IMG/VR virus record: IMGVR_UViG_3300025704_000035
Span: 1 to 53,719 of that record
Reading direction: 5' to 3' (one strand)
Length of the DNA: 53,719 bases
Origin: a virus
Taxonomy: Duplodnaviria > Caudoviricetes
Shown here: positions 1 to 53,719 of the stretch, piece after piece
How the letters are laid out: each line of letters begins with the position of its first letter
Position numbering within the stretch: position 1 is the first letter of the stretch
Translations under genes and position numbers: made by a program
The notes under the pieces: generated by a model
What the model was told of the DNA's origin: nothing
What the model saw: the letters and a program-made list of their open reading frames with translations, nothing else
The model's database searches: none

Positions 1-367
1 GGGTCTCTTCCCAGTTCTCGTAAAACTCGAATCGGTCTGCATAATCTGAGGGCGACTCAAAGAAACCACCAACTAACGGGAGGTCTTGCTTACGGTAGTC
101 TTCGTCAGAAAGCATACGACCTGCAATATCAGTTGTCTGGCTACCAAATCGACCCAAGCCGCCAAGGAAATATTCATAAGCATATTGCATCTTATCTGGA
201 TTGATAGACATGGAACCGTCTCGGTACTTGTCACCCCCAGTAGCATCGTTGAGGAACTCAGCCGGAACAGTAAACATCTTGTCGGTTGATCTTCGAGAGT
301 TATAAGCATTGGCTCGCTCAACAAACAATGGGTTTTGCTCTATGTAGATATCACTGCCAAAGAAGTT
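1..367. repeat. Terminal direct repeat, left copy (circular overlap with 53353-53719)
   Basis: 367 bp align without gaps to the last 367 bp, with 9 substitutions. Confidence 0.97.
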
Positions 368-3300: not shown

Positions 3301-6300
3301 TCAGTTCTTCTGCTGTTATGTCTCTATCTATACGAGACTGTACGGCATCCTTCATTGTTTGATTGATTCGGTTTTGTTCGGGGCGGATTCTTTCTTCCCC
3401 GCCTCGCTGAATTTTTACAGCGTCGTCATAGCTTTCTGCTACAACGCCATCTTCCCTAGAGTACTTACCAAAGTACTCTGGGTTGTGACGCATAAAGACA
3501 ACATCAGGTTCGCCGCCTTTAAACATGGCAAACGTTTTCTTGTCCCATCCATCTGGCGCTTGAGAGTCATCCCACTTAATACGTGAGACAGCCTCGAAGC
3601 CTAGGTTCTTATAAATATATGGAAGAGTGGTATCAAAAGCATCCAAATACTTTGCTCCGTCCTCTATTGCCAGTGACCCTAAGGCGTATGTAGTGTTTGG
3701 ATTTGTGCCATCGCTAAATAGTGAAACGATCTCGTCACCATTTCTTAATGCCAACCCTGCCGTACCGTCGTCAGTGACGTACAGGGTCATATCTTGATAG
3801 TCGGACTCTGGGTAAACATACACCGACGCACCAAAGCGTGAAGACTCTTTAGACGCTTTGATTTTATCGCTAAAGAATTTAACCGTTTCTGGTGTGCTTT
3901 CTAGCTCTAGAACTGTTCGTGAGTAGCTGTCTACTGATGCGAGATCCTGAGCAACTGACGGCTCTAACTCTCGCTTATAGGCATTGAACGTTTGACCGTC
4001 TAGGTCAACTTGAGCATATCCACTAGGTCTTGCTCTGAAGCGTCTGGGTAGTCCGCCTTGATTTCCTCTACCGTCTCCCTGTACGCCTCTGGAACCACGA
4101 AGCCTGTTGTAGGTTGCGATTCTTCTGCGCTGTCCGCTGATATCGGTTGCGTCGTAGTCAGTAGCTCTTTCAGGAGCATACTCTCTTTCAACTGCCTTTC
4201 TTTCAGCGTTAGATTCGACGAGGGCGTCGAGCTTTTGTCTGTCAACTTGTTCTGCTTCATACCAAGGAGATCCTTTATCGTAGTCGGTTACCTTGAAACC
4301 TTTAGGTATTACACCGTTCTTAGACTTTTTAACTTCTTTTAAGAAGTCGCCAAATTGTTTAGTGCTAAACTTGTAAACATCACCGTTAGACTTTGAGTAT
4401 AGTATATACGGGTTTGTATCTTCATCTCTAGCGTAGATAGCACCAAATCTATAAAGGTCACCCTTACCTTCAGGAGCGCCCAAGAAAGCATAAGGACTAT
4501 CTTCACCCTTAGCATCTTTCTCAAGACCCTGCATTGTCGGGTGAGCAACAACCTGCCCTGAATTTAATACCCAACTTTCCCAGTGATAGCGACCAACAGA
4601 AGCATCTTGCTCTCTGCCTAGCCCTTTATATAGGTCTGTGATTTTTGTTTGAAGAGCATTCTCCAAAGCCTCATATCTTGCTAGCCCATGGAAGCCACTG
4701 AACTCATCAGCAATGTCATCATAAATTAACTTGCCGTAACGTCCAGAATCCCACATAGAGTTAAGCTGTATGCGGTCTAAGATAACCACATCATCTCTAC
4801 CCATCATCAGCATCATGAAAGAGAATACTTTGTTGTCTATTCCAGAGCCCTGCACTTGAGCTTGGAACTGACGGCGTACCTCAAAAGACGGAATGCTTGA
4901 ATCTGCTAGCGTGTTATGTAGGTTTTGAAGCTTAGATACACCGTCAACCTGTTCGCTCATCTTCATTAGAAGCGGAAAGAAATCATTGGCATTCGAGGTT
5001 GCGCTCTTACCAAAGGATCCCTCGGGTATAGCGGTCTTAACTTCAGCTATCCATTTGCCTTTGTCATTAGCGTCGATGGTTCCATTTAGAGTTTTCTGAA
5101 TCAGATCCTGAGTCATCTCAGTACCTGTTACAAGATCAACGTATGCCGCCTCTTGAGAGCTAGCAGTTAGTCTTCTAGACAGTAATCCCCACAACAATAA
5201 CTTAGCCGTTGTATCAGGGGTTGCAACACCATTAGCGTATAACTCACCCATTCTTTTCGCAGTATCTAAGCCATTCTTGGCGGCTAATCTTTGCTCTGTA
5301 GTTAACTGAGAGTGACGGTCAACCCATCCATCCATGTTATTGAACAGGTTGATTAAGCCATACGGGGGTGCTAAGTGTGTGTTTTGACCAGTAAGCGATC
5401 TTTCAAACGAGCGCCAAGCATCAGTGCTACTGAGTGCATTGGGGTTACTATCGATGATTGTTTGAAGTCTGCGAATGCTTTCTTCTGCATTCTTGGGGTT
5501 GAGCTTCTTAACAGGAACTTGCTTCTTATCCGAAACATCTCCCTTGGAATCTTCTAATAAATACTCTGCGCCTTTCTTAATGAATCCCATATCATCAAGA
5601 TCAGAAAGGTCGTCATCAATTAAGTCAGCATCGTCGTCTAGATCACCAAGCTCTTGTTCCACCAACTTGGCTTCTTGTTCTTGCTCGATCTCGTTTAGGA
5701 TGTCTTGTTGAATAAACTTGTCGCCATTCATCACAACTAAGTCTTCCGCCTCTACATCTTTATCAAGCAATTGTTCTTTAAGGTTTTCAAATTGGTTGTC
5801 TTCTAGACGCTTAAACTTCTTACGAAGAGTTTTCTCTGTAGCACCCTCTTTGTCAGCAATAAACGACCACGCATCAGTGACAGTGTCTTTGCTTACAAGA
5901 GGATCTAGCGGGGTGTTGTATGATTTTTCTCCCGCCTCAATTAATTTTGCGCGGTGATCCACGATAGCTTGTATCGCATCATTCTTAGTTTCGCCTAGGT
6001 ACTCGACCTTACCATCTAGCGACTCTAACTCTGTAGCGTCGCCAACCTCTGCGGCATAGTCATCGTAATAAACTCGGTATCTGTCACCATCAGGAAATGC
6101 AACTAAGTACTCTCCTGTATCTTCGTAGTTCTCAGATTTTTTGAATCGCGGTTTTTTGCTGTGCGGTTTGAGGGTTACTTCGGTGCGTGGCTCTTCAGCT
6201 ACGACAGGTTCTTGTACCTCTGGTCGTTCACGTTCCCCACCTTCGTCTTGCTCCGATCTCTCCATTGAGGTATCGGCTCGTTCTTGGCTAGCGCTTCCTT

Positions 6301-8932
6301 CGCTATCTGATCTAGCTGGGGTAGGCTGAACTGCCTCGAGGCTTCCGGACTCTGGCGGTGCCCGAACTTGTCCTGATATTCCTGAAGGTTGGGTGGTGTT
6401 TTGGGGGCTGACACTACTCGACGGTTCATCTTGTACCTCTGCCTGTGCAGTCTGTAAGTTTTTGTCACGTATATCTTTTATGTAATTATACGCCTGTGGA
6501 GCAAATTCTTGTAGTTGTTTTGGGTTGCTGTGAAACATTGCCCCAAGCTGAGCAAAGACCTCTTCTCTATATGTGGTGTTTAAACTCTGGTTATCCTGCT
6601 CAAGATCAGCAATGTCTATTTTTAGATCATTAAAAGGATAGTCAAAGCGTTTCCCGAGGTCTGTTCCTTTCTCCCAATTATCATAGATCTCTTCCATGAT
6701 ATCGCCCATAACAACCGTTGGTGCCTCAGCATCGTCTTCAATTGTTATATCGAACCGCGAGTCTTTATCACTTAATCCGTAAGCATAGTCTGCCGCATGG
6801 TAAACCTCATGGGTCATTGTCCATGCTAACTCACGCAACTGTTCTTGATCTGTCATAGCGCCGTCAATCAACTGCGTGTTAACAGATATTCCTCTGCTAC
6901 CTTTTCCTGTAAGAGCTGGTGCAGTTACATCCTGATCCGTATGAACAAACACACCTGAAACTGCATCTACAAATGACGTGGGAACACCCTGTGCTGACAG
7001 GTCAGCCATCACACCACCTATGGTGTTTGTCACTGCCTCTGACTTATCACCGTATACCTCTTCAACTGTTGGTAAGCTTTTACCTTTTGGTTTAGCGGCA
7101 GTTCCAATTTTAAGGGTTTCGTTTCTATCGAAAACTCGGTCAATGTCGTCTTGATCAATTGGCTCAACCACAACATCGGTATTGTTTGGGTCTAGTGCTT
7201 CAGGAGTTTGCGCTACTCTTGACACCTCTAGAAGCTGATCTTGCACAGGGGTAGATGCATCTGTAAGTGAAGCATCCCACTTATGCTCGTGACCATACTC
7301 TCGAGCGCCTTCTGGCACCTCTCTAGCACCAAGTACTGGAGCTGATGGAGAATCACCCACCTCATCCGCAACCGGTTCCTGAATAACGCTCTGCTCTTCT
7401 ACTACCGTGTTAGCTTGTTGAGTGTCGCCATCGCCAAGATTTATCGAGCCACTATTGCTAGGCTCTGTGTAGGTTATGGATAGATCATCACCCTTGCCTA
7501 AATCAACGTTTAGGTTTGCAGGGTTGAAGTCATCTCCGTACTGAATCTTTAGCTGTTCAGTCGCCTGATCTATGTTTTGTTGTTGGACAGGATTTGGAGT
7601 CTGCTCTATAACTGACACACCTGTTACACGACCATCAGAATCTACTGTGGAAATTGTTGTTCCGTCATTATATTTGTTAAAGGTGTCTGCAATGTACTGT
7701 CTTCGTTCTTGCGGTGTAGCGTCTGGGGTTACATCGCGCATAGCGTCGAAGTTTGGAGCATTATCCAACTGATCGTATCCGCCTCTAGCTTTTTTAACAG
7801 AAGCAGAGGCAGTGCCTATGGCTTTACCACCCATAACGCCTGCCGCAACGCTATTAATTAATCCACTTCGTTTGTTCTCGTTTGCAATGTAGTCCATATA
7901 CTCAATTGCTTCTTTCTCTGTGAAGTTGTTATTCACATAAGCAACTGTTTCCTGCTCGACAATAAACTGAAGACCCTCTGTCATACCCTCTATGCCACTG
8001 ACCTTTCCAATGTCTTTAAGATATTCTTTGACCCAAGGCTTGTTTACTCCCGCCTGTAAAACCTCAATTGCTTCGCCTCTCAGGTTCGCAGGAATCATGT
8101 TTTCTAAAACTTTAAAGGCAGGAATTGCGTTTAGTCCACCCTGAACAAGACCTGAGGTTAAGGAGATGAAAGGCGCCTCTTCACCGGTATCTGTCAATAC
8201 CTTCGCAAATGTATTACCTGAACCCTGCGCGGTACCATAAACTACAGCACCGGCTGTTCCGGCTTTTAGAGATATCTGTTTTAGTTTAGCTTCCGCGAAC
8301 TTTTCAGCAACATCTGCGGCTACCTTATCCGCCGCCTCTTTTTCAAATCCGTCTTTAACAAGCTGATCTCTTCCGTTCTGCACATACTTATCAGCAAGCT
8401 TTTTAATTGATGCTTTAGCGCCTGCTTTTGCAATAGCTGATCCGGCGCCCATAGTTCCAACAGCACCAACTAAATCTGGAACCAGTGTACCTAAGGTATA
8501 TGCTGACCATGCCCCAAAATCTGCAATGCTGTTAATATCCTCAACCTTCATTACATCACCGGCTGATTCCTTGGCTTCAGCAGTTTGCTCTTGGTAGTAA
8601 GCCATACCCTCCTTGACCCACTCTTCTTTGCCAAACGCTGAGCCTGCTAAGGCTTTTAAGCCCCCGCCTAATGCTTGCGTTTGATCTATGCCGGCGCTTA
8701 GACCGCGAGTAAAGTTGTTAGGTTGACCGTCAAGCTGTGGAGCTTGATCAGGTTCACGAGTATAGGTTCCCGATAAAGGATCTGAGTTATCGGCGGATGT
8801 AGGGTCCGTAATGGGATCTGGGTTCAGTGCAGGATCTAGAGTTTCTGTTGGCGACTGGGCACCTTCCAGCTCCTCATAGACGTCCTCGTAATACCCTTGC
8901 TTTGAATACAGCTTTACCGAATTAAGTGGCAT
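1..8932 (-). CDS. Giant polyvalent / ejected internal virion protein, 5' part (~3,077 aa including the continuation to 53051)
   Basis: ATG at 8932 (MPLNSVKLYSK...). Spot translations along the region stay in one frame, which matches the 53051-53680 ORF across the junction (9,234 nt, divisible by 3). It is absent from the ORF track, consistent with no stop before the edge. Motifs: HEVYH zincin, HhH-like, GNAT-like, LPD38-like C-terminus (MLINYNPSWGLINP, DLTVNFNRKG). Confidence 0.88.
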   Translation of the reverse strand, partial: MPLNSVKLYSKQGYYEDVYEELEGAQSPTETLDPALNPDPITDPTSADNSDPLSGTYTREPDQAPQLDGQPNNFTRGLSAGIDQTQALGGGLKALAGSAFGKEEWVKEGMAYYQEQTAEAKESAGDVMKVEDINSIADFGAWSAYTLGTLVPDLVGAVGTMGAGSAIAKAGAKASIKKLADKYVQNGRDQLVKDGFEKEAADKVAADVAEKFAEAKLKQISLKAGTAGAVVYGTAQGSGNTFAKVLTDTGEEAPFISLTSGLVQGGLNAIPAFKVLENMIPANLRGEAIEVLQAGVNKPWVKEYLKDIGKVSGIEGMTEGLQFIVEQETVAYVNNNFTEKEAIEYMDYIANENKRSGLINSVAAGVMGGKAIGTASASVKKARGGYDQLDNAPNFDAMRDVTPDATPQERRQYIADTFNKYNDGTTISTVDSDGRVTGVSVIEQTPNPVQQQNIDQATEQLKIQYGDDFNPANLNVDLGKGDDLSITYTEPSNSGSINLGDGDTQQANTVVEEQSVIQEPVADEVGDSPSAPVLGAREVPEGAREYGHEHKWDASLTDASTPVQDQLLEVSRVAQTPEALDPNNTDVVVEPIDQDDIDRVFDRNETLKIGTAAKPKGKSLPTVEEVYGDKSEAVTNTIGGVMADLSAQGVPTSFVDAVSGVFVHTDQDVTAPALTGKGSRGISVNTQLIDGAMTDQEQLRELAWTMTHEVYHAADYAYGLSDKDSRFDITIEDDAEAPTVVMGDIMEEIYDNWEKGTDLGKRFDYPFNDLKIDIADLEQDNQSLNTTYREEVFAQLGAMFHSNPKQLQEFAPQAYNYIKDIRDKNLQTAQAEVQDEPSSSVSPQNTTQPSGISGQVRAPPESGSLEAVQPTPARSDSEGSASQERADTSMERSEQDEGGERERPEVQEPVVAEEPRTEVTLKPHSKKPRFKKSENYEDTGEYLVAFPDGDRYRVYYDDYAAEVGDATELESLDGKVEYLGETKNDAIQAIVDHRAKLIEAGEKSYNTPLDPLVSKDTVTDAWSFIADKEGATEKTLRKKFKRLEDNQFENLKEQLLDKDVEAEDLVVMNGDKFIQQDILNEIEQEQEAKLVEQELGDLDDDADLIDDDLSDLDDMGFIKKGAEYLLEDSKGDVSDKKQVPVKKLNPKNAEESIRRLQTIIDSNPNALSSTDAWRSFERSLTGQNTHLAPPYGLINLFNNMDGWVDRHSQLTTEQRLAAKNGLDTAKRMGELYANGVATPDTTAKLLLWGLLSRRLTASSQEAAYVDLVTGTEMTQDLIQKTLNGTIDANDKGKWIAEVKTAIPEGSFGKSATSNANDFFPLLMKMSEQVDGVSKLQNLHNTLADSSIPSFEVRRQFQAQVQGSGIDNKVFSFMMLMMGRDDVVILDRIQLNSMWDSGRYGKLIYDDIADEFSGFHGLARYEALENALQTKITDLYKGLGREQDASVGRYHWESWVLNSGQVVAHPTMQGLEKDAKGEDSPYAFLGAPEGKGDLYRFGAIYARDEDTNPYILYSKSNGDVYKFSTKQFGDFLKEVKKSKNGVIPKGFKVTDYDKGSPWYEAEQVDRQKLDALVESNAERKAVEREYAPERATDYDATDISGQRRRIATYNRLRGSRGVQGDGRGNQGGLPRRFRARPSGYAQVDLDGQTFNAYKRELEPSVAQDLASVDSYSRTVLELESTPETVKFFSDKIKASKESSRFGASVYVYPESDYQDMTLYVTDDGTAGLALRNGDEIVSLFSDGTNPNTTYALGSLAIEDGAKYLDAFDTTLPYIYKNLGFEAVSRIKWDDSQAPDGWDKKTFAMFKGGEPDVVFMRHNPEYFGKYSREDGVVAESYDDAVKIQRGGEERIRPEQNRINQTMKDAVQSRIDRDITAEELNQVFEDQGRFVAPMTADMVPELPSEQKFVNALKKTNREKPNTPTKETYWKADVLEHGVRYGSRLDIPSYNSKTLAKDERADIVTVHVSRPNAKAGSAGKRLGYYPTIRLKNGVFAVPEKGAVKIALGADKNTIATMEGDYVGQKEDGTALTHEQNVADFKKFVKDPEWTQVSMNPERHSFYYDLEKQQPVESFSEAIQVGNLVIVKDAKYADVEDFAFIKKKQINKELNKLDDGSPSTSQFSYNDEIDSQSDLVRRLKDKAIYRSLVDRYARLEDFEMQAAEYLNVGRLPAAISPRDQENLSHGRVQTDLDNFHAEFVDPLGDVIAELGYTVDAVDTYLIAKHAEERNDVIAEKVAAQRAKNIARTEQAIAKLEEDAGVDHSVQIANLREKLKQYNDLPLAFQDTGSGMTYVEARKVLKIAEQEGTQADLERIASMVYEMHDAARSRMVESGLLDQASKEDWEDTFRFYVPLKGFAAEADGDQFVRASKARGYSVVGSESLKARGRKTLPMSPLMQSFEDIQKKIIRARKNEYAQTLLDLLSELGNSDSYTIYNNKFRPMKDSDELTQQDLKEMERDTRPNGEPKYVQVKKGGQTFFVEFKSDALNHSLQNMSVDAFDRSNSAMDKALTLATRFQTFRRNMLINYNPSWGLINPIRDVQTGLMYALGEMDKNGSRIQGENIIGKMAEGYFPAMRTLYRHYRGKDVAAKMGDEMQKYILEYIEDGAPTGMMLVRDTDEQMRILKNKMKRGLARQAAKALGKWVEDFNVTTENAIRFSAYIEARKAGAPREDAATLAKDLTVNFNRKGESTAVVNAGYLFFNAAVQGNVNIAQALSDDGKGKGEKGTTTARQAAMGMVAIGVALAAWNILSSEDDEDDENRYADLPEHAKNRSLLFMYNDEEGFALPASYGYNFFTNIGRLATEVSLGVSTMDETAVHLWENFLLNFVPVAPSAGDNWEDAARGFYPDLLELHLDMMANKNFFGSDIYIEQNPLFVERANAYNSRRSTDKMFTVPAEFLNDATGGDKYRDGSMSINPDKMQYAYEYFLGGLGRFGSQTTDIAGRMLSDEDYRKQDLPLVGGFFESPSDYADRFEFYENWEET

Positions 8933-8943
8933 TGATTAGCCTT

Positions 8944-10455
8944 TTACTTAATGAATTGAAGTGCTTGTAGCTGGGCGATTAAACCTTGCTCATCAGATAT
9001 TGTTCCGTCTGGATTATAAAAGCCCTGAAGGATTGAGACGTTTTGCGGTGTCCACTGCCCCTTAACAACGCCGCCTAGGTTTGTCTTGAAGCCATTAGGC
9101 ATTGGCATGTCGTTCAGTGCTGTAGATGTCTCTTGGAACCACTCGCTAACGCGAACATTATCCTGCTTCTTGTTCTGTGGACCATAAAGAATCTCATGTT
9201 CTATTTGGCGCCGATATTTGTCTGTATCAGCAAAGGCTAATTTTTCCGAGACGGTGGCGCTTGTCAAGTCCTCCATAAATGGAAGCGATGTTGGCGAGGC
9301 GCCGTTTTGAATACCCTTGCGAACCTGCTCCAAACGTCGATCCACAGCCACACCAAAAGCATCCATACCGCTTTTCCCTTTACCATCGCCATAGATTGTT
9401 TTAATTTTTGCTTCTTTTGCATGTTTTTCTATTCGTGGAGCAACACTCCGAACCATGTGAGACGTACCCGCCGTCGCTTGCATAGCCTCATCAAAGCTAA
9501 GAGTAAGTGCCTTGTTGTCACCCATGCTTCTGTTTGCGGTTAGCGGCGGAAAGTAGGGGTAGATGTCACCCGTCTTTTGGTTCTTGACCATGACATACAT
9601 AGTCCCACCAAACTGCTGTCCATCGTATGAGCCAATTTCATGGAGACCTTGACTCACGATCTTGTGATTCCCGTCCTTCATCCAGTCGGGAGCGTTAACG
9701 AACGTATCGTCTAGAGTTCTTCCCACAGCCGCAGACTTGCCTACACCCAACATGTCATCAAAAGCACCAACAAGCTCAGGAGTCATTTCAGGGTTACTGC
9801 CATCAGCAAGGTTTTGCACGAAGTTCCGTACGGTGCCTATACTATCTTCTGTTGAAGGATTTAAAATGAAACCAAGATCAAAGCGACCTCCGCCTTTAAG
9901 ATCCTCTTGTCCTTGCCGAAAATATTCAAGCTCGCTTTCGCCCAAAGATCTATCCTTTGCGCCACTACTGATCTTATATAATCTGTTAAGTATCCCCGCA
10001 TTTTCGTGCTCAGCTCTTTGAGAGCCAGCAAGTATAGTTGCCTCTTTTTTTGAAGCTGTTTCAGCCTGCGTCTTATCAATTCCTGCTTGCTTCTCTTGTG
10101 ATGCCAAAGAGTTGACGTCGGTCAGTTGTTTTTGTTTTGCAAGTTCAGTATCAGCTTTGACGCCTGCTGTTTGGGCGTTGATTAGTGCAGTTTGTGAAGT
10201 TATTGCGCTTAGCGATGCTGAGGATTCGGCTGATGCTCTTTTGTAATCTAGATCTTGAGCCCTGTAATCCTGCGTGTTTTGTTCCTGTTCTTTCTGAAAA
10301 GATAGCGTATCCTGCCTGTACTGTTCATCTAGACCCTGCTTCTCTTTTTGATTTTCAAACTGCTCTTCTTTTAATCGACGACCCTTTACGCCCTCCATCA
10401 AACCGAAACCCTGCTGAAAGCCCTGTGCAAAACCGCCGTATGTGTTCAAAGCCAT
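8944..10455 (-). CDS. Putative internal virion / DNA ejection protein
   Basis: 503 aa; Gly-rich N-terminus (GGFAQGFQQGFG) then a Q/E coiled coil; lies in the ejection-protein block. Confidence 0.6.
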   Translation of the reverse strand: MALNTYGGFAQGFQQGFGLMEGVKGRRLKEEQFENQKEKQGLDEQYRQDTLSFQKEQEQNTQDYRAQDLDYKRASAESSASLSAITSQTALINAQTAGVKADTELAKQKQLTDVNSLASQEKQAGIDKTQAETASKKEATILAGSQRAEHENAGILNRLYKISSGAKDRSLGESELEYFRQGQEDLKGGGRFDLGFILNPSTEDSIGTVRNFVQNLADGSNPEMTPELVGAFDDMLGVGKSAAVGRTLDDTFVNAPDWMKDGNHKIVSQGLHEIGSYDGQQFGGTMYVMVKNQKTGDIYPYFPPLTANRSMGDNKALTLSFDEAMQATAGTSHMVRSVAPRIEKHAKEAKIKTIYGDGKGKSGMDAFGVAVDRRLEQVRKGIQNGASPTSLPFMEDLTSATVSEKLAFADTDKYRRQIEHEILYGPQNKKQDNVRVSEWFQETSTALNDMPMPNGFKTNLGGVVKGQWTPQNVSILQGFYNPDGTISDEQGLIAQLQALQFIK

Positions 10456-10464
10456 AACGAATAC

Positions 10465-11094
10465 CTAGTCGAATAATTTGTTTAGTAAGAAAGCGACGCC
10501 TAATCCGATTGCTATAGGAGATGCCATTGTGGCTAGCTGTGCCATTGGACCCGCTGATGCTGTTGCCGCTGTTCCCGTGTTCACTGCGGCTAATGCTTCA
10601 CCGCCTACCGTGGCTGTTTCTGCAAGGGCTCCTGCTTCTGCCGTCAGAGTCCCTGCTTCTACCGTTACAGCTCCGGCTTCGGCTAACGTACCTGCTTCTG
10701 CCAGCGCGGCATCAGTCGCTAAACCATCAATACCTAGGGCGGTATTTTCCATAGCGGAAACTGCCGCATCACCCGAAAGTGTTGTCGCGCCTTCTCCTGC
10801 TGGCGTATATTTAACGGTTCCTGTCATTGATCTGCTTGCAGTTCCGTATCCGTCTAGCGCCGTATTAATTCCATCAATCCCTGCGTTTGCCGCTTTAGAT
10901 GCGTCCGCCATTCTGTTAGCACCAACCATTCCACCAATACCTGCGCCTGTGCCCATGGTTGCGTTTTCTTGCTGTTGCTGTGCTGTCTCAAGAGCCAGAC
11001 GTTGCTGATTCTCTACTGACTCAGCCTTAGTTACAGCGCCCATTCCTCTAAGGGCACCGCCTCTCAGACCTCTACCTACCGCTAACATTGTCAT
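10465..11094 (-). CDS. Ala/Gly-rich putative ejection (pilot) protein with C-terminal hydrophobic helix
   Basis: 209 aa; composition; C-terminal PIAIGLGVAFLL. Confidence 0.6.
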   Translation of the reverse strand: MTMLAVGRGLRGGALRGMGAVTKAESVENQQRLALETAQQQQENATMGTGAGIGGMVGANRMADASKAANAGIDGINTALDGYGTASRSMTGTVKYTPAGEGATTLSGDAAVSAMENTALGIDGLATDAALAEAGTLAEAGAVTVEAGTLTAEAGALAETATVGGEALAAVNTGTAATASAGPMAQLATMASPIAIGLGVAFLLNKLFD

Positions 11095-36466: not shown

Positions 36467-36496
36467 TTGACAGATTATTTTCTGCACCTGTATATT
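36467..36496 (+). promoter_or_regulatory. Sigma70-type promoter of the rightward operon
   Basis: TTGACA (36467-72), 18-bp spacer, TATATT (36491-96); AT-rich UP-like region upstream. Confidence 0.7.
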
Positions 36497-36499
36497 AGT

Positions 36500-36826
36500 T
36501 GGCAAGTGCTCAAACGGCACTTCGGATACGAGGTCTCCGACATGACCTGCCACCTTCGGGTGAACACGAAAGCTTCGGCGAGTAGTGGTCTTCAAAGCAC
36601 AGCGGTTGGGTGCGAGTCGGGACAGAGCCCCTGCCGCTCTTCAAAGGTGCACGGTTGGAGATAGTGAAAGCCAGAATGAGTTCTGAGCGAGTAGCGAGCC
36701 TCCTGCAAGGAACGCAATCAAACGACCGACTGGGTGGGCTACCTACCTAGGAAAGCTACGGCGAGTACGACCCAGTCGAGTTGATTTGATAGAGCCGCCA
36801 CGTTGGAGGTTCTACAAAATCAATTC
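36500..36826 (+). ncRNA. Candidate structured leader RNA, family unknown
   Basis: GC-rich, no convincing CDS; UUCG/UACG tetraloops; three GAAAGC..GCGAGUA modules; 9-bp stem 36727-35/36770-78; long hairpin 36778-36826. Confidence 0.65.
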
Positions 36827-36845
36827 TTACCCTGAGGAGGGCACC

Positions 36846-37019
36846 ATGGATATTCAAGTAGAAATAAAAAGCATTTACGGTCAAGAAAAGATCTACCCAC
36901 TATGCCTAGCAGGCGAGACATTCGCTCAGATAGCAGGCACCAAAACATTAACCACTGAGACTATCGCACTGGCTAAGCGCCTAGGCTATCAATTCATTAT
37001 TAAACAACGGGGGATCTGA
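36846..37019 (+). CDS. Small hypothetical protein
   Basis: MDIQVEIKSIYGQEKIYP..., directly after CCTGAGGAGG. Confidence 0.75.
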   Translation: MDIQVEIKSIYGQEKIYPLCLAGETFAQIAGTKTLTTETIALAKRLGYQFIIKQRGI

Positions 37020-37021
37020 TC

Positions 37022-37252
37022 ATGACTACACATAAAGAACGAGCGTTTAAGTTAGCGGATGAGATAGACGCACTGCATAGCAAACTAGAAGAGCATGTTG
37101 AAGATTTACGGCTCGAATGGGCAGACGATAAATTCGATGACGAGTACCCAATCTGGGACTCAGAAGATGCTCAATGCTACTTAGAGAAGGCGGTTGACTT
37201 AATCAAGCGCTACTACACGAACGAATCATTATTTAGGCGGCAGATCCCCTGA
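37022..37252 (+). CDS. Small acidic hypothetical protein
   Basis: 76-aa ORF with GGGGG SD-like sequence. Confidence 0.65.
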   Translation: MTTHKERAFKLADEIDALHSKLEEHVEDLRLEWADDKFDDEYPIWDSEDAQCYLEKAVDLIKRYYTNESLFRRQIP

Positions 37253-37271
37253 AAAGGGAAGCCTAAGCATA

Positions 37272-37332
37272 CTCAACTGATGAGGCTAGCGGGGGTTAGC
37301 CGAAACAGCCCTTCGGGGTTGTCTTGAGACCC
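37272..37332 (+). ncRNA. Type I hammerhead ribozyme HH1 (predicted cleavage after C37323, GUC)
   Basis: Stem I CUCAA/UUGAG; CUGAUGA; stem II GGCUAGC/GUUAGCC; GAAA; stem III CAGCCC-UUCG-GGGUUG; G-rich loop II can pair with 3' CCC. Confidence 0.93.
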
Positions 37333-37361
37333 ATATAATTAATCCTGAGGAGGATAACAAC

Positions 37362-38240
37362 ATGGCTAAATTTGAAGATATTTTTCAAGAAGTTACAGAC
37401 CGAATCATTGATGGTTTGGAAAATGCTGATGACTGGCGCAAGCCTTGGAAATCACTGTTCGATGGTTCAGTACCGCATAACGCATCTACTGGCAGACCAT
37501 ATAGCGGTGTGAATTTCCTTAACCTATCGTGGGCATCCAAGAAATGGGGTGCTTCTGGTTGGGTTACCTACAAGCAGGCGCAAGCCCTTGGCGGTAAGGT
37601 TCCCAGTAAAAGCGCATCAAACGGGGGCTGTGAGTATGTTTGGTTCATGGCTCGCAGTGTCTATAAAGATAAGCAGACTGGTGACGATAAAGTCGGCTTT
37701 ATAAACAAATGCTTCTCAGTCTGGAATGTTAACCAGATCGAATGGGAAGAAGGCAGTAAACCTTACAGAGAATACACCCCACCAGTATCTGGTACGGGTG
37801 CAGTCAATGTACTGGCTGAGAGCCTAGATATTGATCTGCAATATCAGGGTGATGTTGCATGCTTCATCCCTTCAGTAGATGTTATCAAGATGCCTTCTGC
37901 TGAGGCGTTCAAAACCCCTGAAGACCATGACGCCACACTGGCTCATGAGTTAGTGCACTGGACTGGTCATAAAGACCGACTCAACAGAAAGATCCTGAAC
38001 AGCAAGGGTGGTGAAGATTACGCCTTTGAGGAACTGGTCGCTGAGTTGGGTGCGGCTTTTGCAGGCTCCCTACTAGGTATTCCCTACGAGGGGCTACAGC
38101 ATGAGAAGTACATCAAGAGTTGGCTTAAGGCGTTAAAGAATGATCCTAAACATATCGTAAAGGCATCTGCTCAAGCGTCCAAAGCTGTTAACTATCTTAA
38201 TGATAACGGCTCCCTACAGATTGTAGACATAGCCGCATAG
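37362..38240 (+). CDS. ardC: ArdC-like antirestriction protein (ssDNA-binding domain plus zincin metallopeptidase)
   Basis: W.KPW, N..TGRPYSGVN, W.TYKQA..LGG, HELVHWTGH..RL.R, YAFEELVAELGAAF, YI.SWL..L. Confidence 0.9.
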   Translation: MAKFEDIFQEVTDRIIDGLENADDWRKPWKSLFDGSVPHNASTGRPYSGVNFLNLSWASKKWGASGWVTYKQAQALGGKVPSKSASNGGCEYVWFMARSVYKDKQTGDDKVGFINKCFSVWNVNQIEWEEGSKPYREYTPPVSGTGAVNVLAESLDIDLQYQGDVACFIPSVDVIKMPSAEAFKTPEDHDATLAHELVHWTGHKDRLNRKILNSKGGEDYAFEELVAELGAAFAGSLLGIPYEGLQHEKYIKSWLKALKNDPKHIVKASAQASKAVNYLNDNGSLQIVDIAA

Positions 38241-38241
38241 G

Positions 38242-38279
38242 TTGGGGGGTGTTGGGTTTTTCCCGCGCCCCAATTTTTT
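38242..38279 (+). terminator. Possible weak terminator hairpin after ardC
   Basis: TTGGGG...CCCCAA imperfect stem followed by a T run. Confidence 0.4.
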
Positions 38280-38295
38280 ACCTGAGGAGGTAATC

Positions 38296-38451
38296 ATGAC
38301 TGAAGATCAACTGATACAAAACGTTAAAAACGTAATCCTTGAGTGGGCGTTCGAGGAGATCGAAGAAAACCCTGACAGCGACATTACCTTGGAGGATCGG
38401 TACTGCCAGAACAGGGATTCAATACTTGACGTCCTGAAAGAAAAGCTCTAG
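38296..38451 (+). CDS. Small acidic hypothetical protein
   Basis: ATG after CCTGAGGAGG; stop TAG is part of HH2 stem I. Confidence 0.7.
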   Translation: MTEDQLIQNVKNVILEWAFEEIEENPDSDITLEDRYCQNRDSILDVLKEKL

Positions 38452-38511
38452 CTGATGAGTACTGGGTAGTGCCCAGTCGAAACACTGGTTCGCCAGTGTC
38501 CTAGATAACTA
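38447..38511 (+). ncRNA. Type I hammerhead ribozyme HH2 (cleavage after C38500, GUC)
   Basis: Stem I UCUAG/CUAGA; CUGAUGA; stem II G(U)ACUGGG/CCCAGUC; GAAA; stem III CACUGG-UUCG-CCAGUG; loop UAGU pairs with 3' ACUA. Confidence 0.93.
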
Positions 38512-38530
38512 ATCCTGAGGAGGATCTATC

Positions 38531-38938
38531 ATGGCTACATTGCAACAGAAAAACATCCACCCTGCACTGTCCCTGACTTGGGATTTATTGACAGACCCTG
38601 TGATCAACCCTACACGCAAAGCGAGACTGCGTCAGGATGCACGGCGCTATCAATACAGCGACCGCCTAGCTACTCGCATTGAACTCAATCAACACATTGA
38701 GTACTGCAAGACCGCAGACGGTTTTATTTATATCGAGAACTTCTCTCGAGACTGTGACAACTGCGAACGTACATGGGTAGAGAAGATACCCGCTCACATC
38801 ACAGCCCTCACGGTACACGAGAACCGACTGCAAAAAAACGCAGAGGGGATCACCTACTGCTCCCTGATCACTAAAGCGCAAGCAAACAAATTCAAACCCT
38901 CATTTCGTGATCGTAACGCAGAGCGTGGCTGGTACTAA
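38531..38938 (+). CDS. Hypothetical protein with CxxC
   Basis: 135 aa; SD hairpin upstream. Confidence 0.75.
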   Translation: MATLQQKNIHPALSLTWDLLTDPVINPTRKARLRQDARRYQYSDRLATRIELNQHIEYCKTADGFIYIENFSRDCDNCERTWVEKIPAHITALTVHENRLQKNAEGITYCSLITKAQANKFKPSFRDRNAERGWY

Positions 38939-38949
38939 CTTTATACTAA

Positions 38950-39012
38950 TCCAACTGATGAGACTAGATAGTTACTGGTCGAAACACCCCCTGTGGGTGT
39001 CTTGGAAAACTA
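38950..39012 (+). ncRNA. Type I hammerhead ribozyme HH3 (cleavage after C39001, GUC)
   Basis: Stem I UCCAA/UUGGA; CUGAUGA; stem II GACUAG/CUGGUC; GAAA; stem III CACCC/GGGUG; loop UAGUU pairs with 3' AACUA. Confidence 0.93.
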
Positions 39013-39034
39013 ATAAGACCTGAGGAGGTTAATC

Positions 39035-39577
39035 ATGAGCAATTCCAAATTTCACTTAGATAAAAATGCAATCCATTTGCTTAAAGAGTGCAACGAGTTG
39101 GCATGGCGTATGTCTGGTCGGGTCGAAGAACTTTTTAACGACTTGCATGGCACGTCAGTACCCCGCTCTGTTAGAGATGAGATTGAGATTCTTGAGCAGT
39201 ACCTAAACAAGGTAATCAATCAGACCACAGAAGCCCTAGACGCTGATCGTGAGATTGACGGTGAGTGTGTCCATGCTTACTGCCCTAACCCAACCAACAT
39301 AGAAGCCTATGGCTTAAAGGTTGAGAGGTATCTGCCCAGTAACTGGGAGGTATCAGATATAACACCTGACACTGTTTATATTCGTGGTCATAACACCTGC
39401 CGCACTGATGGAGAGCGTGAGTTCGAGCACTACTTACAGCCACGGCTAACGTCAGGCTTGATTCACTCTGTGCTTGCAACCGCTGAAGAAGTAGCGAAGC
39501 GTGCCCAAGGTGAGCGAGACAATCTTGAGGATGGGTGGGTTCAAACAAACGACATAAGGCACCAGTTACCGTGTTAA
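39035..39577 (+). CDS. Hypothetical protein
   Basis: 180 aa; SD hairpin upstream; bracketed by HH3 and HH4. Confidence 0.75.
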   Translation: MSNSKFHLDKNAIHLLKECNELAWRMSGRVEELFNDLHGTSVPRSVRDEIEILEQYLNKVINQTTEALDADREIDGECVHAYCPNPTNIEAYGLKVERYLPSNWEVSDITPDTVYIRGHNTCRTDGEREFEHYLQPRLTSGLIHSVLATAEEVAKRAQGERDNLEDGWVQTNDIRHQLPC

Positions 39578-39578
39578 A

Positions 39579-39640
39579 TCCAACTGATGATCGCAGTTAG
39601 TTACTGCGTGAAACACCCTTCGGGGTGTATTGGAAAACTA
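39579..39640 (+). ncRNA. Type I hammerhead ribozyme HH4 (cleavage after A39629, GUA)
   Basis: Stem I UCCAA/UUGGA; CUGAUGA; stem II CGCAGU/ACUGCG with U-U at the base; GAAA; stem III CACCC-UUCG-GGGUG; loop UAGUU pairs with 3' AACUA. Confidence 0.88.
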
Positions 39641-39658
39641 AACCTGAGGAGGTTGTAT

Positions 39659-39946
39659 ATGTATTTCATAACTAAACTAAACGGCGATCGAGTGCCCAGT
39701 CGATATGGTCTGGTGCATTACGTGAGTCTGTCCAGACTGTGTGACTATAGCTACCCTAACGTTAAGGATGGCATAAGCTATCTGGTATATAAGAGTGAAT
39801 TAGATCGCAGTGATGGCAAAGCCCATGGCGTCTATGTTACTGAGGGCGGAAAGTTGGTGCGCGATAAACGCAGATCAGCATTACGCAAAATACACGATCT
39901 ATTCAGGGGGCGCAGTATCGATGAAATTACCTACGCCCCACTTTGA
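39659..39946 (+). CDS. Hypothetical protein
   Basis: Start at MYFITKL after CCTGAGGAGG; the track's longer start lies inside HH4. Confidence 0.72.
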   Translation: MYFITKLNGDRVPSRYGLVHYVSLSRLCDYSYPNVKDGISYLVYKSELDRSDGKAHGVYVTEGGKLVRDKRRSALRKIHDLFRGRSIDEITYAPL

Positions 39947-40136
39947 CATTAACACTATGCTTCACCGCAAGGTGCGGTATGTCCTACAGAAACCTGACGC
40001 CCTGCATGATGCCCTGCTACAAATTGTAACTTTGGGCAAATCGGATTGGGATCAGCAAGAGTGGGACGCACTGGTTGCCGATATCGAATCATCCGACCTT
40101 ACAGTTGGTGAATACATCAAGCCCTACAGAACCTGA
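39921..40136 (+). CDS. Hypothetical protein
   Basis: MKLPTPHF...; stop TGA lies inside the next CCTGAGGAGG. Confidence 0.6.
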   Translation: MKLPTPHFDINTMLHRKVRYVLQKPDALHDALLQIVTLGKSDWDQQEWDALVADIESSDLTVGEYIKPYRT

Positions 40137-40147
40137 GGAGGTTAACC

Positions 40148-40390
40148 ATGGCTTATTACATTAGCAAGCTAGACCCTATAGATGGATCAGTATCACCGTT
40201 CGCTAGAGTAGTCAAACGATTATGTGATGCAAAACATCTAGCTGACGATGAGGTGTGTGCGGTATTCAAAAACCGCAGAGACTTCTCTGAAAAGTGGATC
40301 TACAAAACCTATGTGTCGCAGAACGGTAAACTTAAACCCGTGACAAGACATGACATCCCGAAACAAATCGGAAATCTGTTTTCTCTCTAG
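40148..40390 (+). CDS. Hypothetical protein
   Basis: 80 aa; stop TAG is part of HH5 stem I. Confidence 0.72.
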   Translation: MAYYISKLDPIDGSVSPFARVVKRLCDAKHLADDEVCAVFKNRRDFSEKWIYKTYVSQNGKLKPVTRHDIPKQIGNLFSL

Positions 40391-40445
40391 CTGATGAGCA
40401 CTGGATGGTTACCAGTCGAAACGCCGTGAGGCGTCCTAGAAAACC
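40386..40445 (+). ncRNA. Type I hammerhead ribozyme HH5 (cleavage after C40435, GUC)
   Basis: Stem I UCUAG/CUAGA; CUGAUGA; stem II G(C)ACUGG/CCAGUC; GAAA; stem III CGCC-GUGA-GGCG; loop GGUU pairs with 3' AACC. Confidence 0.93.
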
Positions 40446-40487
40446 GTTACAATTGCGTGTATATTAATTTCCTGAGGAGGATACATT

Positions 40488-40793
40488 ATGAAACAAGCAC
40501 ACTTACACCTTATTCAATGGGGTTTAGATCAGGGCTACATCATCGAGGTAGACATCGAGGGTGAGGCTGAGTATCGAGGCAAAAGCTACAAAGAAGCAAA
40601 AGATGCTAGCGAAGCGGGTGAGACAGGCTGTATATACCTAATTACTGGCACGGGTGATACAGATTATGCGTGGTTTGGATATCTTCACGACTACGACCAG
40701 AAGCCCGATGAAAAGATTTACGACTATGGCATTTGTGCCGTATCTGAATCGTGGCAGAAAGCCTACGACCAACACTGCTCTCAAGCCGCATAA
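40488..40793 (+). CDS. Hypothetical protein
   Basis: 101 aa; SD hairpin upstream. Confidence 0.75.
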   Translation: MKQAHLHLIQWGLDQGYIIEVDIEGEAEYRGKSYKEAKDASEAGETGCIYLITGTGDTDYAWFGYLHDYDQKPDEKIYDYGICAVSESWQKAYDQHCSQAA

Positions 40794-40820
40794 CCACCCC
40801 CACAATAAGTAACCACCATA

Positions 40821-40843
40821 AAGCCACCTTCGGGTGGTTTTTT
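40821..40843 (+). terminator. Intrinsic terminator
   Basis: AAGCCACC-TTCG-GGTGGTTT followed by a T run. Confidence 0.8.
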
Positions 40844-40888
40844 AGTGCTTATTTAATTATCAAAAACCAATATCCTGAGGAGGATTTT

Positions 40889-41224
40889 ATGAGTTTATAT
40901 TTAGTAAAAAGTGAAGTACGCGATGGTGGTTATGAATACCATGACAAGTTTATCCTGCTAGCAAGTAGCGGCGGAATATCGCTCGAACTACCTCAAAACA
41001 TCAATGCAATTTTGACGGCATGGGAGTTTGGGTTGACTGTCAAACATGTTGAAGAGTCAGGTGATGAGGTTTGGGCTGACTGTCGGCTGGTTTATTGCAA
41101 CACCTGCGGAACCATATCAAATGAAAACTACAACGTCATTAAAGAATACCTGAACGTGATTAATCTTGAGTACATTTTAGGTGATGTCGAATATGGCGAT
41201 GAGCGTGATCAGGAGGTGGCGTAA
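40889..41224 (+). CDS. Hypothetical protein
   Basis: Start MSLYLVK after CCTGAGGAGG. Confidence 0.72.
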   Translation: MSLYLVKSEVRDGGYEYHDKFILLASSGGISLELPQNINAILTAWEFGLTVKHVEESGDEVWADCRLVYCNTCGTISNENYNVIKEYLNVINLEYILGDVEYGDERDQEVA

Positions 41225-41391
41225 TGGATAACCCATTTGCAGATATCGCCCAGTGGGAGCGCTACTGGGATATGAGCGACCTTGAACGTGTCCGTGAGGA
41301 TGAGCAGGAGCAGAAAAAGAAAGAAGCGACCGAGCAAAAATGGGCTAATCGCTTTAAGTTAGGTATTCAAGACGAATGCGAACAATACTAG
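41224..41391 (+). CDS. 55-aa hypothetical protein (below the ORF-track cutoff)
   Basis: MDNPFADIAQWERYWDMSDL...; TAATG coupling and AGGAGG SD. Confidence 0.65.
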   Translation: MDNPFADIAQWERYWDMSDLERVREDEQEQKKKEATEQKWANRFKLGIQDECEQY

Positions 41392-41399
41392 GAGGTGCT

Positions 41400-41588
41400 A
41401 TGCCTATATATCAAGTAACAACTAAAGAGGTCTGCCTTAACACCTATGAGGTGGCGGCTAGATCCAAGGAAGATGCTATCAGCTCTTATTATGAGCAGTT
41501 GAACTCGCGTCAAATAAAAAGCGTTAGCAGTGATGAGAGTGTTATTTCAACACTTGAAGTATTTCCAACTGATGAGTTGTCGAGGTAG
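41400..41588 (+). CDS. Small hypothetical protein; last codons overlap HH6
   Basis: MPIYQVTTKE... with AGGAGG SD; PTDELSR* is encoded by the hammerhead core. Confidence 0.65.
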   Translation: MPIYQVTTKEVCLNTYEVAARSKEDAISSYYEQLNSRQIKSVSSDESVISTLEVFPTDELSR

Positions 41589-41662
41589 TCCCTCGATCGA
41601 AAGTCTAAGTACACAATAGGTAATCTTTTTTACCCTTTGTGTATTTGACTCTTGGATAACTA
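41564..41662 (+). ncRNA. Type I hammerhead ribozyme HH6 with extended stem III (cleavage after C41651, CUC)
   Basis: Stem I UCCAA/UUGGA; CUGAUGA; stem II GUCGAGG/CCUCGAU; GAAA; stem III GUC/GAC plus AAGUACACAA/UUGUGUAUUU plus GGUAA/UUACC; loop UAGU pairs with 3' ACUA. Confidence 0.85.
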
Positions 41663-41682
41663 AAAAACCTGAGGAGGTTTAT

Positions 41683-42135
41683 ATGTCTAACAATAATGTT
41701 TATTTAAGAAGTAAAAAGGTTAAAAGAATTGGCGGGAAGGATATTGTTTTGTTCTCTCATGCCTACAATCATGAGGTATCTGTCTTAGCTAAAGAGAAGT
41801 ACTACGGCAGTGAATCGCATTATGACCGAGTGGTAAATCAGCGTGAAAATAAAGCTATGAAATACTGCGAAACACAGAAAGATATAGGGTATATGGTTCT
41901 GTGTGACAACTGGACTAGTATTGGGTTGCATTACGATTTATCAAAACCATGCTTAAACCCAGTTTATATAATAGAGCCTCATGACTACTACATTCGCGAG
42001 GGCACTCAACTTCCACCTATTGCAGGCTTTGTTTCCCGTAGTGGTTATCAGTACCGTTTTATAGCTTTTGAAGATGCCTGTGAACCTTGGAAGCAAAAAT
42101 ACCCAGAGCAGATTAAAAGAAATGCTTTCACCTAA
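41683..42135 (+). CDS. Hypothetical protein
   Basis: 150 aa; SD hairpin upstream. Confidence 0.75.
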   Translation: MSNNNVYLRSKKVKRIGGKDIVLFSHAYNHEVSVLAKEKYYGSESHYDRVVNQRENKAMKYCETQKDIGYMVLCDNWTSIGLHYDLSKPCLNPVYIIEPHDYYIREGTQLPPIAGFVSRSGYQYRFIAFEDACEPWKQKYPEQIKRNAFT

Positions 42136-42258
42136 TACTAAAGTATTAGTACCTAATGGCTATGTATTAATGAATCATTTGTACGTATATTCTTCACCCA
42201 AAGGAATTGGCACTCTTTCGACATGGATGTTCTCTTAATTTCATTTAAAGGAAATAGG

Positions 42259-42642
42259 ATGAACCTTAATGACAGTAAAATTGAAAAAGACCCTCGATAT
42301 CTAGTCGCGGTTGCTTTGTTACGACTAGCAAAAACGTCAAAACAAAAAAAGGTATTAAGAAAAATGCTCAAGCAACATCAGGGCTTTGACTTTCTTGCAT
42401 ATAAGCAACACATCAAAAAAGAGATAGATGAAAAAAGCGCGGGCGGTAAAATAATTGTTCACGCATGGAGCCTTGAAGATACATTGCAGGGCTGTCCCTC
42501 AACCAAAAAACTGCCAGCAACAGTAGTTGCTTATTTAAGATTTGCTAGATCAGCTAAAGGCAAGTCTGTAATTATTAACCCCCCGTCTTTGACAGTTCGT
42601 CAAACGACTTTTACAGAGACTAATCTTCAAAGCGTAGTATAA
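42259..42642 (+). CDS. Hypothetical basic protein
   Basis: Start at MNLNDSK (AAGGA SD). Confidence 0.6.
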   Translation: MNLNDSKIEKDPRYLVAVALLRLAKTSKQKKVLRKMLKQHQGFDFLAYKQHIKKEIDEKSAGGKIIVHAWSLEDTLQGCPSTKKLPATVVAYLRFARSAKGKSVIINPPSLTVRQTTFTETNLQSVV

Positions 42643-42736
42643 AGGTGACGGCTCACCTGAGGAGGGTATAGGCACAGGGAATACAGTGCCGAGCCGCCGC
42701 CCCTATCATAACCCTACAGTACCCACGGAGTAAAGA

Positions 42737-53050: not shown

Positions 53051-53719
53051 CTACTTCCCCTCAGCCTTTCGGTATGCCTTGTTAAAGATATCAAAGATCT
53101 TGTTTTCATTAACTTCAAGCTCTTCAAGTAACTTTCTTCTTTTCTCCTCTCCTAATGAGCCGGCACCGTAGTTCTGTTTCTCAACCATTTTTCTTGTTTT
53201 AGAGATCCTTCTAAGGTCTCTGTTTGCCAGCTCGTAAAGATTCTTACCGTTATACTTGGGGTTAAGTAGCGGGATGAAATCTTTAAACTCTGTCTGAAGT
53301 CTAGCCACTTCCGTCACGTCTGTAGCTTCTTTAAATCTAGTTACAATTTTACGGGTCTCTTCCCAGTTCTCGTAAAACTCGAATCGGTCTGCATAATCTG
53401 AGGGCGACTCAAAGAAACCACCAACTAACGGGAGGTCTTGCTTACGGTAGTCTTCATCCGAAAGCATACGACCTGCAATATCAGTTGTCTGGCTACCAAA
53501 TCGACCCAAGCCGCCAAGGAAATACTCATAAGCATATTGCATCTTATCTGGATTGATAGATATGGATCCATCTCGGTACTTATCACCCCCAGTAGCATCG
53601 TTGAGGAACTCAGCCGGAACAGTAAACATCTTGTCGGTTGATCTTCGAGAGTTATAAGCATTGGCTCGGTCAACAAACAACGGGTTTTGCTCTATGTAGA
53701 TATCACTGCCAAAGAAGTT
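53051..53719 (-). CDS. C-terminal part of the giant polyvalent protein (continues from 1-8932)
   Basis: Same frame as 1-8932 through the terminal overlap; stop at 53051. Confidence 0.88.
   Translation of the reverse strand, partial: NFFGSDIYIEQNPLFVDRANAYNSRRSTDKMFTVPAEFLNDATGGDKYRDGSISINPDKMQYAYEYFLGGLGRFGSQTTDIAGRMLSDEDYRKQDLPLVGGFFESPSDYADRFEFYENWEETRKIVTRFKEATDVTEVARLQTEFKDFIPLLNPKYNGKNLYELANRDLRRISKTRKMVEKQNYGAGSLGEEKRRKLLEELEVNENKIFDIFNKAYRKAEGK
53353..53719. repeat. Terminal direct repeat, right copy
   Basis: Matches 1-367 with 9 substitutions. Confidence 0.97.

Follow-up and report, generated by a model that had tools for sequence, protein, structure and literature searches.

Six type I hammerheads with a covarying loop II/3'-tail pseudoknot in an accessory-gene operon of a tailed phage

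The IMG/VR virus record IMGVR_UViG_3300025704_000035 (53,719 bases), which was analysed over its entire length and is called the window here, contains six elements with the core and the stems of a hammerhead ribozyme, HH1 to HH6. They are most probably functional type I hammerheads in a plus-strand operon of small early accessory genes, in which a pseudoknot between the loop closing stem II (loop II) and the 3' tail leaving stem I would brace stems I and II for fast cleavage. The sequence features of the elements, the common register of the pseudoknot, its covariation among homologues and the placement of the elements relative to the genes are observed directly, and from these we infer cleavage, its speed and the effects on message stability and translation.

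Both strands of the window were scanned for the hammerhead core combined with a stem I of at least 4 bp and a stem III of at least 3 bp. This motif-and-pairing scan yielded a total of six type I hammerheads, which without exception lie on the plus strand and have a stem I of 5 bp: HH1 (37272-37328, predicted cut after C37323, stem II 37284-37301, stem III 37305-37322), HH2 (38447-38505, cut after C38500), HH3 (38950-39006, cut after C39001), HH4 (39579-39634, cut after A39629 in a GUA site), HH5 (40386-40440, cut after C40435) and HH6 (41564-41656, cut after C41651, with a long stem III at 41602-41650). The bare core pattern CTGATGA..GAAA has seven matches compared with 1.43 expected, and none of 100 shuffled sequences reached seven. 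The seventh match, at 37426, was rejected as a hammerhead, as it lies within a gene and lacks the stems.

The CUGAUGA and GAAA segments and U16.1 are present in all six copies, and N17 is a C except in HH4, where it is an A. Stems II and III are closed hairpins and stem I is open throughout, with a stem II of 6-7 bp. The pair at positions 10.1 and 11.1 is G-C in five copies and U.U in HH4 (U39591 and U39609). The minimum-energy fold corresponds exactly to the three-way junction for HH1, HH3 and HH4, and nearly so for HH2 and HH5. A covariance model, R1, was built from HH1-HH5 with the pseudoknot left out, and it scores HH1 at 74.1 bits and HH3 at 87.7 bits. HH6, with its long stem III, is misplaced by R1 when the filters are off (13.2 bits) and reaches 35 bits with the default filters.

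The original prediction held that loop II is complementary, in every copy, to a segment 1-2 nt past stem I, and all the pairs that it listed were recovered by scan and alignment. HH1 pairs GGG 37292-37294, part of a G run at 37291-37295, with CCC 37330-37332 after a spacer of 1 nt. HH2 and HH6 pair UAGU (38467-38470 and 41586-41589) with ACUA (38508-38511 and 41659-41662) after a spacer of 2 nt. HH3 and HH4 pair UAGUU (38969-38973 and 39598-39602) with AACUA (39008-39012 and 39636-39640), both with a spacer of 1 nt. HH5, also with a spacer of 1 nt, pairs GGUU 40407-40410 with AACC 40442-40445 and has an extra wobble between U40406 and G40446 (loop UGGUU, tail AACCG). A single alignment register holds all six pairings, and the helix is 4-5 bp long in all copies except HH1, where it has 3 bp.

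Chance complementarity is one explanation for such a match, as helices of 3-5 bp are short and that of HH1, taken alone, has P = 0.11. As a control within the window, the longest Watson-Crick loop/tail helices were summed over the six copies, which gives 25. The same loops set against random 8-nt windows of the genome gave 12.6 ± 1.7 with a maximum of 22, and none of 20000 draws reached 25, although the six draws are not independent because the six copies are paralogues. For the same reason, and with four copies sharing one pairing, the window alone offers only three versions of the pseudoknot (GGG/CCC, UAGU(U)/(A)ACUA and UGGUU/AACCG).

Covariation among homologues provides the independent test. 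A seed pattern in which the core and a CCAA/UUGG stem I were fixed and loop II and the tail were left free matched more than 118 stretches of viral contigs. Model R1 gave, among the matches listed, 176 at E up to 0.001 in 98 sources, covering ≈0.9 Mb of viral loci, and the best 150 of these 176, with 112 distinct rows, make up alignment A4. In A4 the columns of the pseudoknot (30-34 with 149-153) have 83.7% of their cells paired compared with 72.3 ± 0.8% after shuffling, and a covariation score of 0.340 compared with 0.157; neither value was reached in any of 500 shuffles. Sliding the partners along the alignment gave at best 49.5% paired cells and a score of 0.145. All five pairs are altered on both sides, which bears out the earlier claim that loop and tail change together. 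The central pair is G-C in 56 rows, A-U in 39, G-U in 4 and something else in 12.

The same trend was observed in a permutation test on 149 unique hammerheads, where the mean longest Watson-Crick loop/tail helix was 3.64 compared with 2.66 ± 0.07 after permutation of the tails (0 of 1000 reached the observed value). The pairings in this set include UGGU/ACCA, UAGUU/AACUA, CGGG/CCCG, UGAUU/AAUCA and UAGCU/AGCUA, among others. The linker between stem I and the pseudoknot is a single letter in 110 of the 112 rows, and the loop region has 7 nt in 99 of them. The chance explanation is thus already refuted by the controls, none of the random draws, permutations and shuffles having reached the observed values, and we regard it as extremely improbable. 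Across the 112 homologues, pairing amounts to 97-99.8% in the three stems, where many pairs are altered on both sides. GAAA and U16.1 never vary in this set, and 108 of the 112 have CUGAYGA.

Two variants of the structure were seen among the relatives. In a sister group (L017, L024, L028, L046, L068, L071 and others) stem I reads ACCAA, the loop is UGAGAUU or UGAAAUU, and a small hairpin directly after stem I replaces the plain tail. The loop of this hairpin (e.g., AAUCU) is complementary to loop II (AGAUU), and the two might form a kissing-loop version of the same contact. The hammerhead at L089 3596-3669 has UUGAUAA in place of CUGAUGA (U3 with A8), a covariation of a core pair that is also reported in PMC3088659.

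The operon itself is shared with the loci L069 (98% identical), L085 (93-96%) and L081 (70-79%). The pseudoknot of HH2 is UAGU/ACUA in the window and UGGU/ACCA in L081 with stems I and II identical, i.e., one compensatory swap, and HH1 keeps GGG/CCC in both with compensatory change in stems I and II. Over the six orthologous hammerheads of the window and L081, 9 base pairs are changed on both sides and still paired, and 5 are changed on one side and still paired. Five pairs are lost, namely the optional fifth pseudoknot pair (three times), the 10.1-11.1 pair of HH4, which is U.U in the window, and one terminal pair of stem III. Judged from sequence, this comparison is the cleanest evidence for selection on both the fold and the pseudoknot. 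The suggestion of the original prediction that the elements are selected for activity and are not decayed repeats therefore appears to hold, with support from intact cores, covariation and syntenic swaps rather than from kinetics.

Several observations weigh against the reading of the six elements as functional hammerheads braced by a pseudoknot. The Rfam hammerhead model RF00163 (clan CL00010) calls none of the six at its gathering score of 34 bits, and below this threshold, at E up to 10, it lists two of them, HH3 at 23.8 bits and HH2 at 20.6 bits, and not the other four. This shortfall can be ascribed to the long stems II and III, which are scored as insertions, as the core features are all present. 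HH4 carries U.U where the most conserved pair of stem II is expected, the lowest-energy fold of HH6 contains a competing CAACU/AGUUG hairpin, and the pseudoknot of HH1 has just the 3 bp mentioned above. Among the homologues the fifth pseudoknot pair is unpaired in about half (57 of 109), and pair 30-153 or 31-152 is missing in 12-13 of 111 rows of A4. The sampling is biased, as the seed pattern fixes the core and the CCAA/UUGG stem I, and A4 was fitted to a model made from five of the window's own copies, with shuffles that ignore relatedness. Finally, an exact 206-nt contig from an RNA library (41511-41716) bridges the cut site of HH6 and could be either uncut RNA or carried-over DNA. Together with the competing hairpin it indicates that HH6 may cut incompletely, unless the contig is DNA. 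The contigs of four metatranscriptome runs over 37000-41800 are short and sparse and cannot show RNA ends, and they thus give no evidence for or against cleavage.

The bridging contig would also fit a different explanation, in which the elements are no longer catalysts but persist because they give messages a structured 3' end or act as recombination repeats, with a loop/tail match inherited by duplication. The UAGU(U)/(A)ACUA pairing in four of the six copies is as expected of paralogues, and relatives differ by a whole cassette. In L085 (2691-3160, minus strand of the locus) there is an additional hammerhead with a ribosome-binding site (RBS) and an open reading frame (ORF) of 82 codons, bounded exactly by two hammerhead copies. 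The corresponding site is 38941-39028 of the window, where the window and L069 carry a single HH3 and L081 and L067 carry two syntenic HH3 copies. This difference suggests gain or loss of a gene cassette by recombination between ribozyme repeats. Alignment to more distant phages is confined to the hammerhead and its RBS. However, the 112 distinct homologues show little or no variation in the unpaired nucleotides of the core, for which a simple hairpin would have no use, inheritance alone is not sufficient for compensatory pseudoknot swaps between syntenic copies, and the slid-partner controls fail. We therefore find the loss of catalysis highly improbable and return to the elements as active ribozymes.

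Pseudoknots between stems I and II are known from all three hammerhead types and from ≈40% of the representatives (Perreault et al., 2011; PLoS Comput Biol 7:e1002031; PMC3088659). As in that work, stems I and II of the ribozymes in the window would be braced by a short Watson-Crick helix, a pseudoknot in which the loop of one stem pairs with the strand that leaves the other, and the published pseudoknots are described as constraining the stem lengths. The construct mutated by Perreault et al. (2011) was a type II ribozyme in which loop I pairs with the tail after stem II, whereas the six in the window are the mirror image, type I with loop II pairing with the tail after stem I; type I examples appear in that paper only in Figure 2B and the supplements. 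At 0.5 mM Mg2+, the activity of the type II ribozyme fell by 20-fold to more than 100-fold in disruptive mutants and was restored in a compensatory mutant, and deletion likewise proved the pseudoknot (PMC3088659). The premise that contacts between stems I and II make natural hammerheads fast at physiological Mg2+ is right and has a close precedent in the published case, where the pseudoknot was needed for fast cleavage at 0.5 mM Mg2+. The same authors describe groups of hammerheads on either side of genes in prophages, among them the anti-restriction gene ardA as the next gene downstream. Three such clusters cleaved in vitro, and the Agrobacterium tumefaciens cluster flanking ardA also in vivo (PMC3088659). 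The gene downstream in the window is ArdC-like, as opposed to ArdA. Bracing by a loop/tail pseudoknot and clustered hammerheads in phage operons are accordingly already published, and the six in the window are new, uncatalogued members.

The RAGATH-1 or 'PK hammerhead' family (Rfam RF03152; Zhan et al., 2024; PMC11300833) also has a hammerhead core, a pseudoknot as long-range contact and phage-like contexts. In its crystal structure an extra stem-loop (helix IV), attached to helix I, takes part in the pseudoknot, which stands in for helix II (PMC11300833). The ribozymes in the window, by contrast, have a full stem II of 6-7 bp and use the 3' tail. Membership of RF03152 was ruled out by this topology, and HH3 scores 26.5 bits with that model compared with a gathering score of 56.3. 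The contact also differs from those of the extended hammerheads (De la Pena, 2003; Khvorova, 2003; Martick and Scott, 2006; cited in PMC3088659 and PMC11300833) by being a base-paired helix. The loop-loop and loop-bulge contacts of the latter, as described there, are not Watson-Crick and leave no simple covariation.

The six hammerheads stand in front of genes. The 10-mer CCUGAGGAGG, a strong RBS motif, follows HH1 at 37344-37353 (plus strand) and recurs after HH2-HH6 at 38514, 39019, 39643, 40471 and 41668, in all cases 13-35 nt after the ribozyme. The leaders from cut to AUG would be 38, 30, 33, 29, 52 and 31 nt long for HH1-HH6, respectively. The 9-mer CTGAGGAGG has 11 copies, all on the plus strand between 36832 and 42657 (block 36832-42665) and none elsewhere in the genome, and it precedes 11 genes; at the six post-hammerhead sites checked it is preceded by a C. 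The motif is common to the relatives, where it also stands after their hammerheads. Among 188 unique viral hammerheads, 138 have an RBS and a start codon at most 45 nt after stem I, compared with 16.7 ± 3.9 after shuffling. Synthetic insulators of the RiboJ type, derived from a satellite-RNA ribozyme, likewise place a hammerhead before the RBS in engineered bacterial operons and give each gene a defined short leader with a 5'-OH. The phage units differ from RiboJ in being natural, repeated six-fold and braced by a tail pseudoknot.

This placement, in the window and among the viral hammerheads, makes co-transcriptional self-cleavage the best-supported mechanism. The 7-nt loop closing stem II would pair with a stretch of 3-5 nt in the tail after stem I and hold stems I and II side by side, a role like that of the loop-loop contacts in viroid and Schistosoma hammerheads, which may allow fast cleavage at cellular Mg2+, judging from the published mirror-image case. 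Six self-inflicted cuts would then divide the polycistronic transcript, in each case 29-52 nt ahead of a start codon. On the upstream message the body of the ribozyme would remain, forming a structured 3' end with a 2',3'-cyclic phosphate, and the downstream message would begin with a 5'-OH and a short leader made up of the 3' strand of stem I, the pseudoknot tail and the CCUGAGGAGG RBS.

The stop codons of some upstream genes lie inside the ribozymes. The stop of the gene before HH2 (UAG 38449-38451) is within the 5' strand of stem I, as is that before HH5 (UAG 40388-40390) within its stem I. Upstream of HH6, the frame of a 62-codon ORF (to 41588) takes in the CUGAUGA core and terminates at the UAG in loop II (41586-41588), which is part of the pseudoknot. 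Translation of the upstream gene and folding of the ribozyme must consequently compete.

It is also conceivable that the pseudoknot serves mainly as a switch between ribozyme folding and translation, so that cleavage turns on the downstream gene. The distance from the predicted cut to the AUG is 29-52 nt, and that from the end of the tail to CCUGAGGAGG is 2-25 nt. The footprint of the 30S subunit spans roughly -35 to +19. Since the tail and the 3' strand of stem I lie in the leader that it covers, the ribozyme in its folded, uncut state would be incompatible with ribosome binding. The order hammerhead-tail-RBS in the 138 of 188 viral hammerheads, with a peak of RBS positions 10-14 nt after stem I, agrees with a switch, and in RNA viruses of fungi and plants the initiation of translation reportedly requires a type I hammerhead in the 5'-UTR to cleave (PMC13725137). 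This eukaryotic precedent, however, concerns cap-independent initiation, which is a different problem. The covariation shows the pairing of loop and tail and not its purpose, and the published mirror-image pseudoknot acts on the rate of cleavage in vitro, where no ribosomes are involved (PMC3088659). A switch as the main purpose of the pseudoknot is thus unlikely in our view, and bracing for cleavage is preferred.

HH4 combines U.U with A17. Three pattern scans with the relevant position left free gave 220 unique parsed hammerheads. U.U at 10.1/11.1 occurs with A17 in 38 and with another N17 in 1, and any other combination at 10.1/11.1 occurs with A17 in 16 and with another N17 in 165 (Fisher p 1e-28, calculated for sequences that lack independence from one another). 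The reverse link fails, as A17 is also found with G-C at 10.1/11.1. U.U with A17 is present at the loci L003, L036, L065, L069, L085, L122 and L173, among others. In the slot of HH4 the window, L069 and L085 have U.U and A17, and the syntenic L081, L067 and L084 have G-C and C17. A tree, which is weak, has 8 changes of the U.U state; in 5 independent pairs on supported branches A17 is concordant in 4.5 on average and never opposite. After phylogenetic correction the link has a median p of 0.0625, which is not significant, and can be called suggestive. Perreault et al. (2011) mention the U10.1-U11.1 mismatch as a natural variant (PMC3088659). We have not found the link to A17 in print; 'A17' and 'C17' are absent from the main text of PMC3088659, whose figures or supplements may show it. 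A near-obligate link between U10.1.U11.1 and A17 bears on a heavily studied catalytic core.

The operon is preceded by a promoter-like site at 36467-36496 (plus strand, before the first gene), which has TTGACA and TATATT with a spacing of 18 and agrees in 11 of 12 positions; this is a consensus match only. Directly after HH1 comes a gene (37362-38240, plus strand) for an ArdC-like anti-restriction protein/zincin metallopeptidase (Pfam PF18818, 4e-38; PF08401, 3e-19). The other small proteins of the operon had no match in Pfam (nine proteins) or in PHROGs (ten searched), and gene function therefore gives no clue beyond ArdC. A G+C-rich hairpin followed by a T run is found at 38241-38280, after the ArdC-like gene, and at 40820-40848, after a gene ending at 40793. 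Both junctions are without a hammerhead, and neither was listed on the plus strand by the consensus scan.

The record is rated 100% complete. Its PHROGs matches comprise large terminase, major head protein, tail fibres, internal virion protein, primase/helicase, RecE-like exonuclease and integrase, which identifies a temperate tailed phage. The DNA runs containing it are from marine, freshwater and other aquatic metagenomes. A blastn search of 36800-42200 against a collection of phage genomes from GenBank gave no match, the tRNA search of the genome found none, and the repeat search in 1-10500 found nothing notable. The CCAA..UUGG pattern matched 11 stretches in contigs of cellular genomes, of which three could be read as hammerheads, and the 11 gave no indication of a host. 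A giant minus-strand ORF (2-8932), with at least 2977 codons, extends beyond the start of the record, and an open frame at 53051-53719 may continue it if the record is circularly permuted. The region 1-9000 had been considered as a recoded or non-coding stretch, which was ruled out, as it is this single minus-strand ORF.

A bolder reading joins several of these points, and we hold it only tentatively, as rather unlikely in its full form. Hammerhead, tail and RBS would constitute a portable unit in which the bracing tail doubles as the leader of the next gene and folding and cleavage gate the access of the 30S, and at least two tuned catalytic grades would exist, one with G10.1-C11.1 and C17 and one, as in HH4, with co-adapted U10.1.U11.1 and A17. 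With access gated in this way, each small gene would be translated only from cut message. If true, this would also imply a coupling of the first pair of stem II with the nucleotide at the cleavage site, which we have not found in print. A literature search on phage hammerheads in relation to the RBS and the stability of messages returned nothing on point.

A large set of hammerheads from aquatic phages escapes annotation by Rfam. That relatives differ by a cassette points to a further role of the repeats, as joints in gene exchange. The role of self-cleaving ribozymes in bacteria was called 'largely elusive' in a review from 2019, which named the processing of polycistronic messages as a suggestion (PMC6765202). 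With their fixed geometry (stem I of 5 bp, linker of 1 nt, pseudoknot of 4-5 bp and loop of 7 nt) and fixed distance to the RBS, the phage hammerheads form a clean natural system that could address this role.

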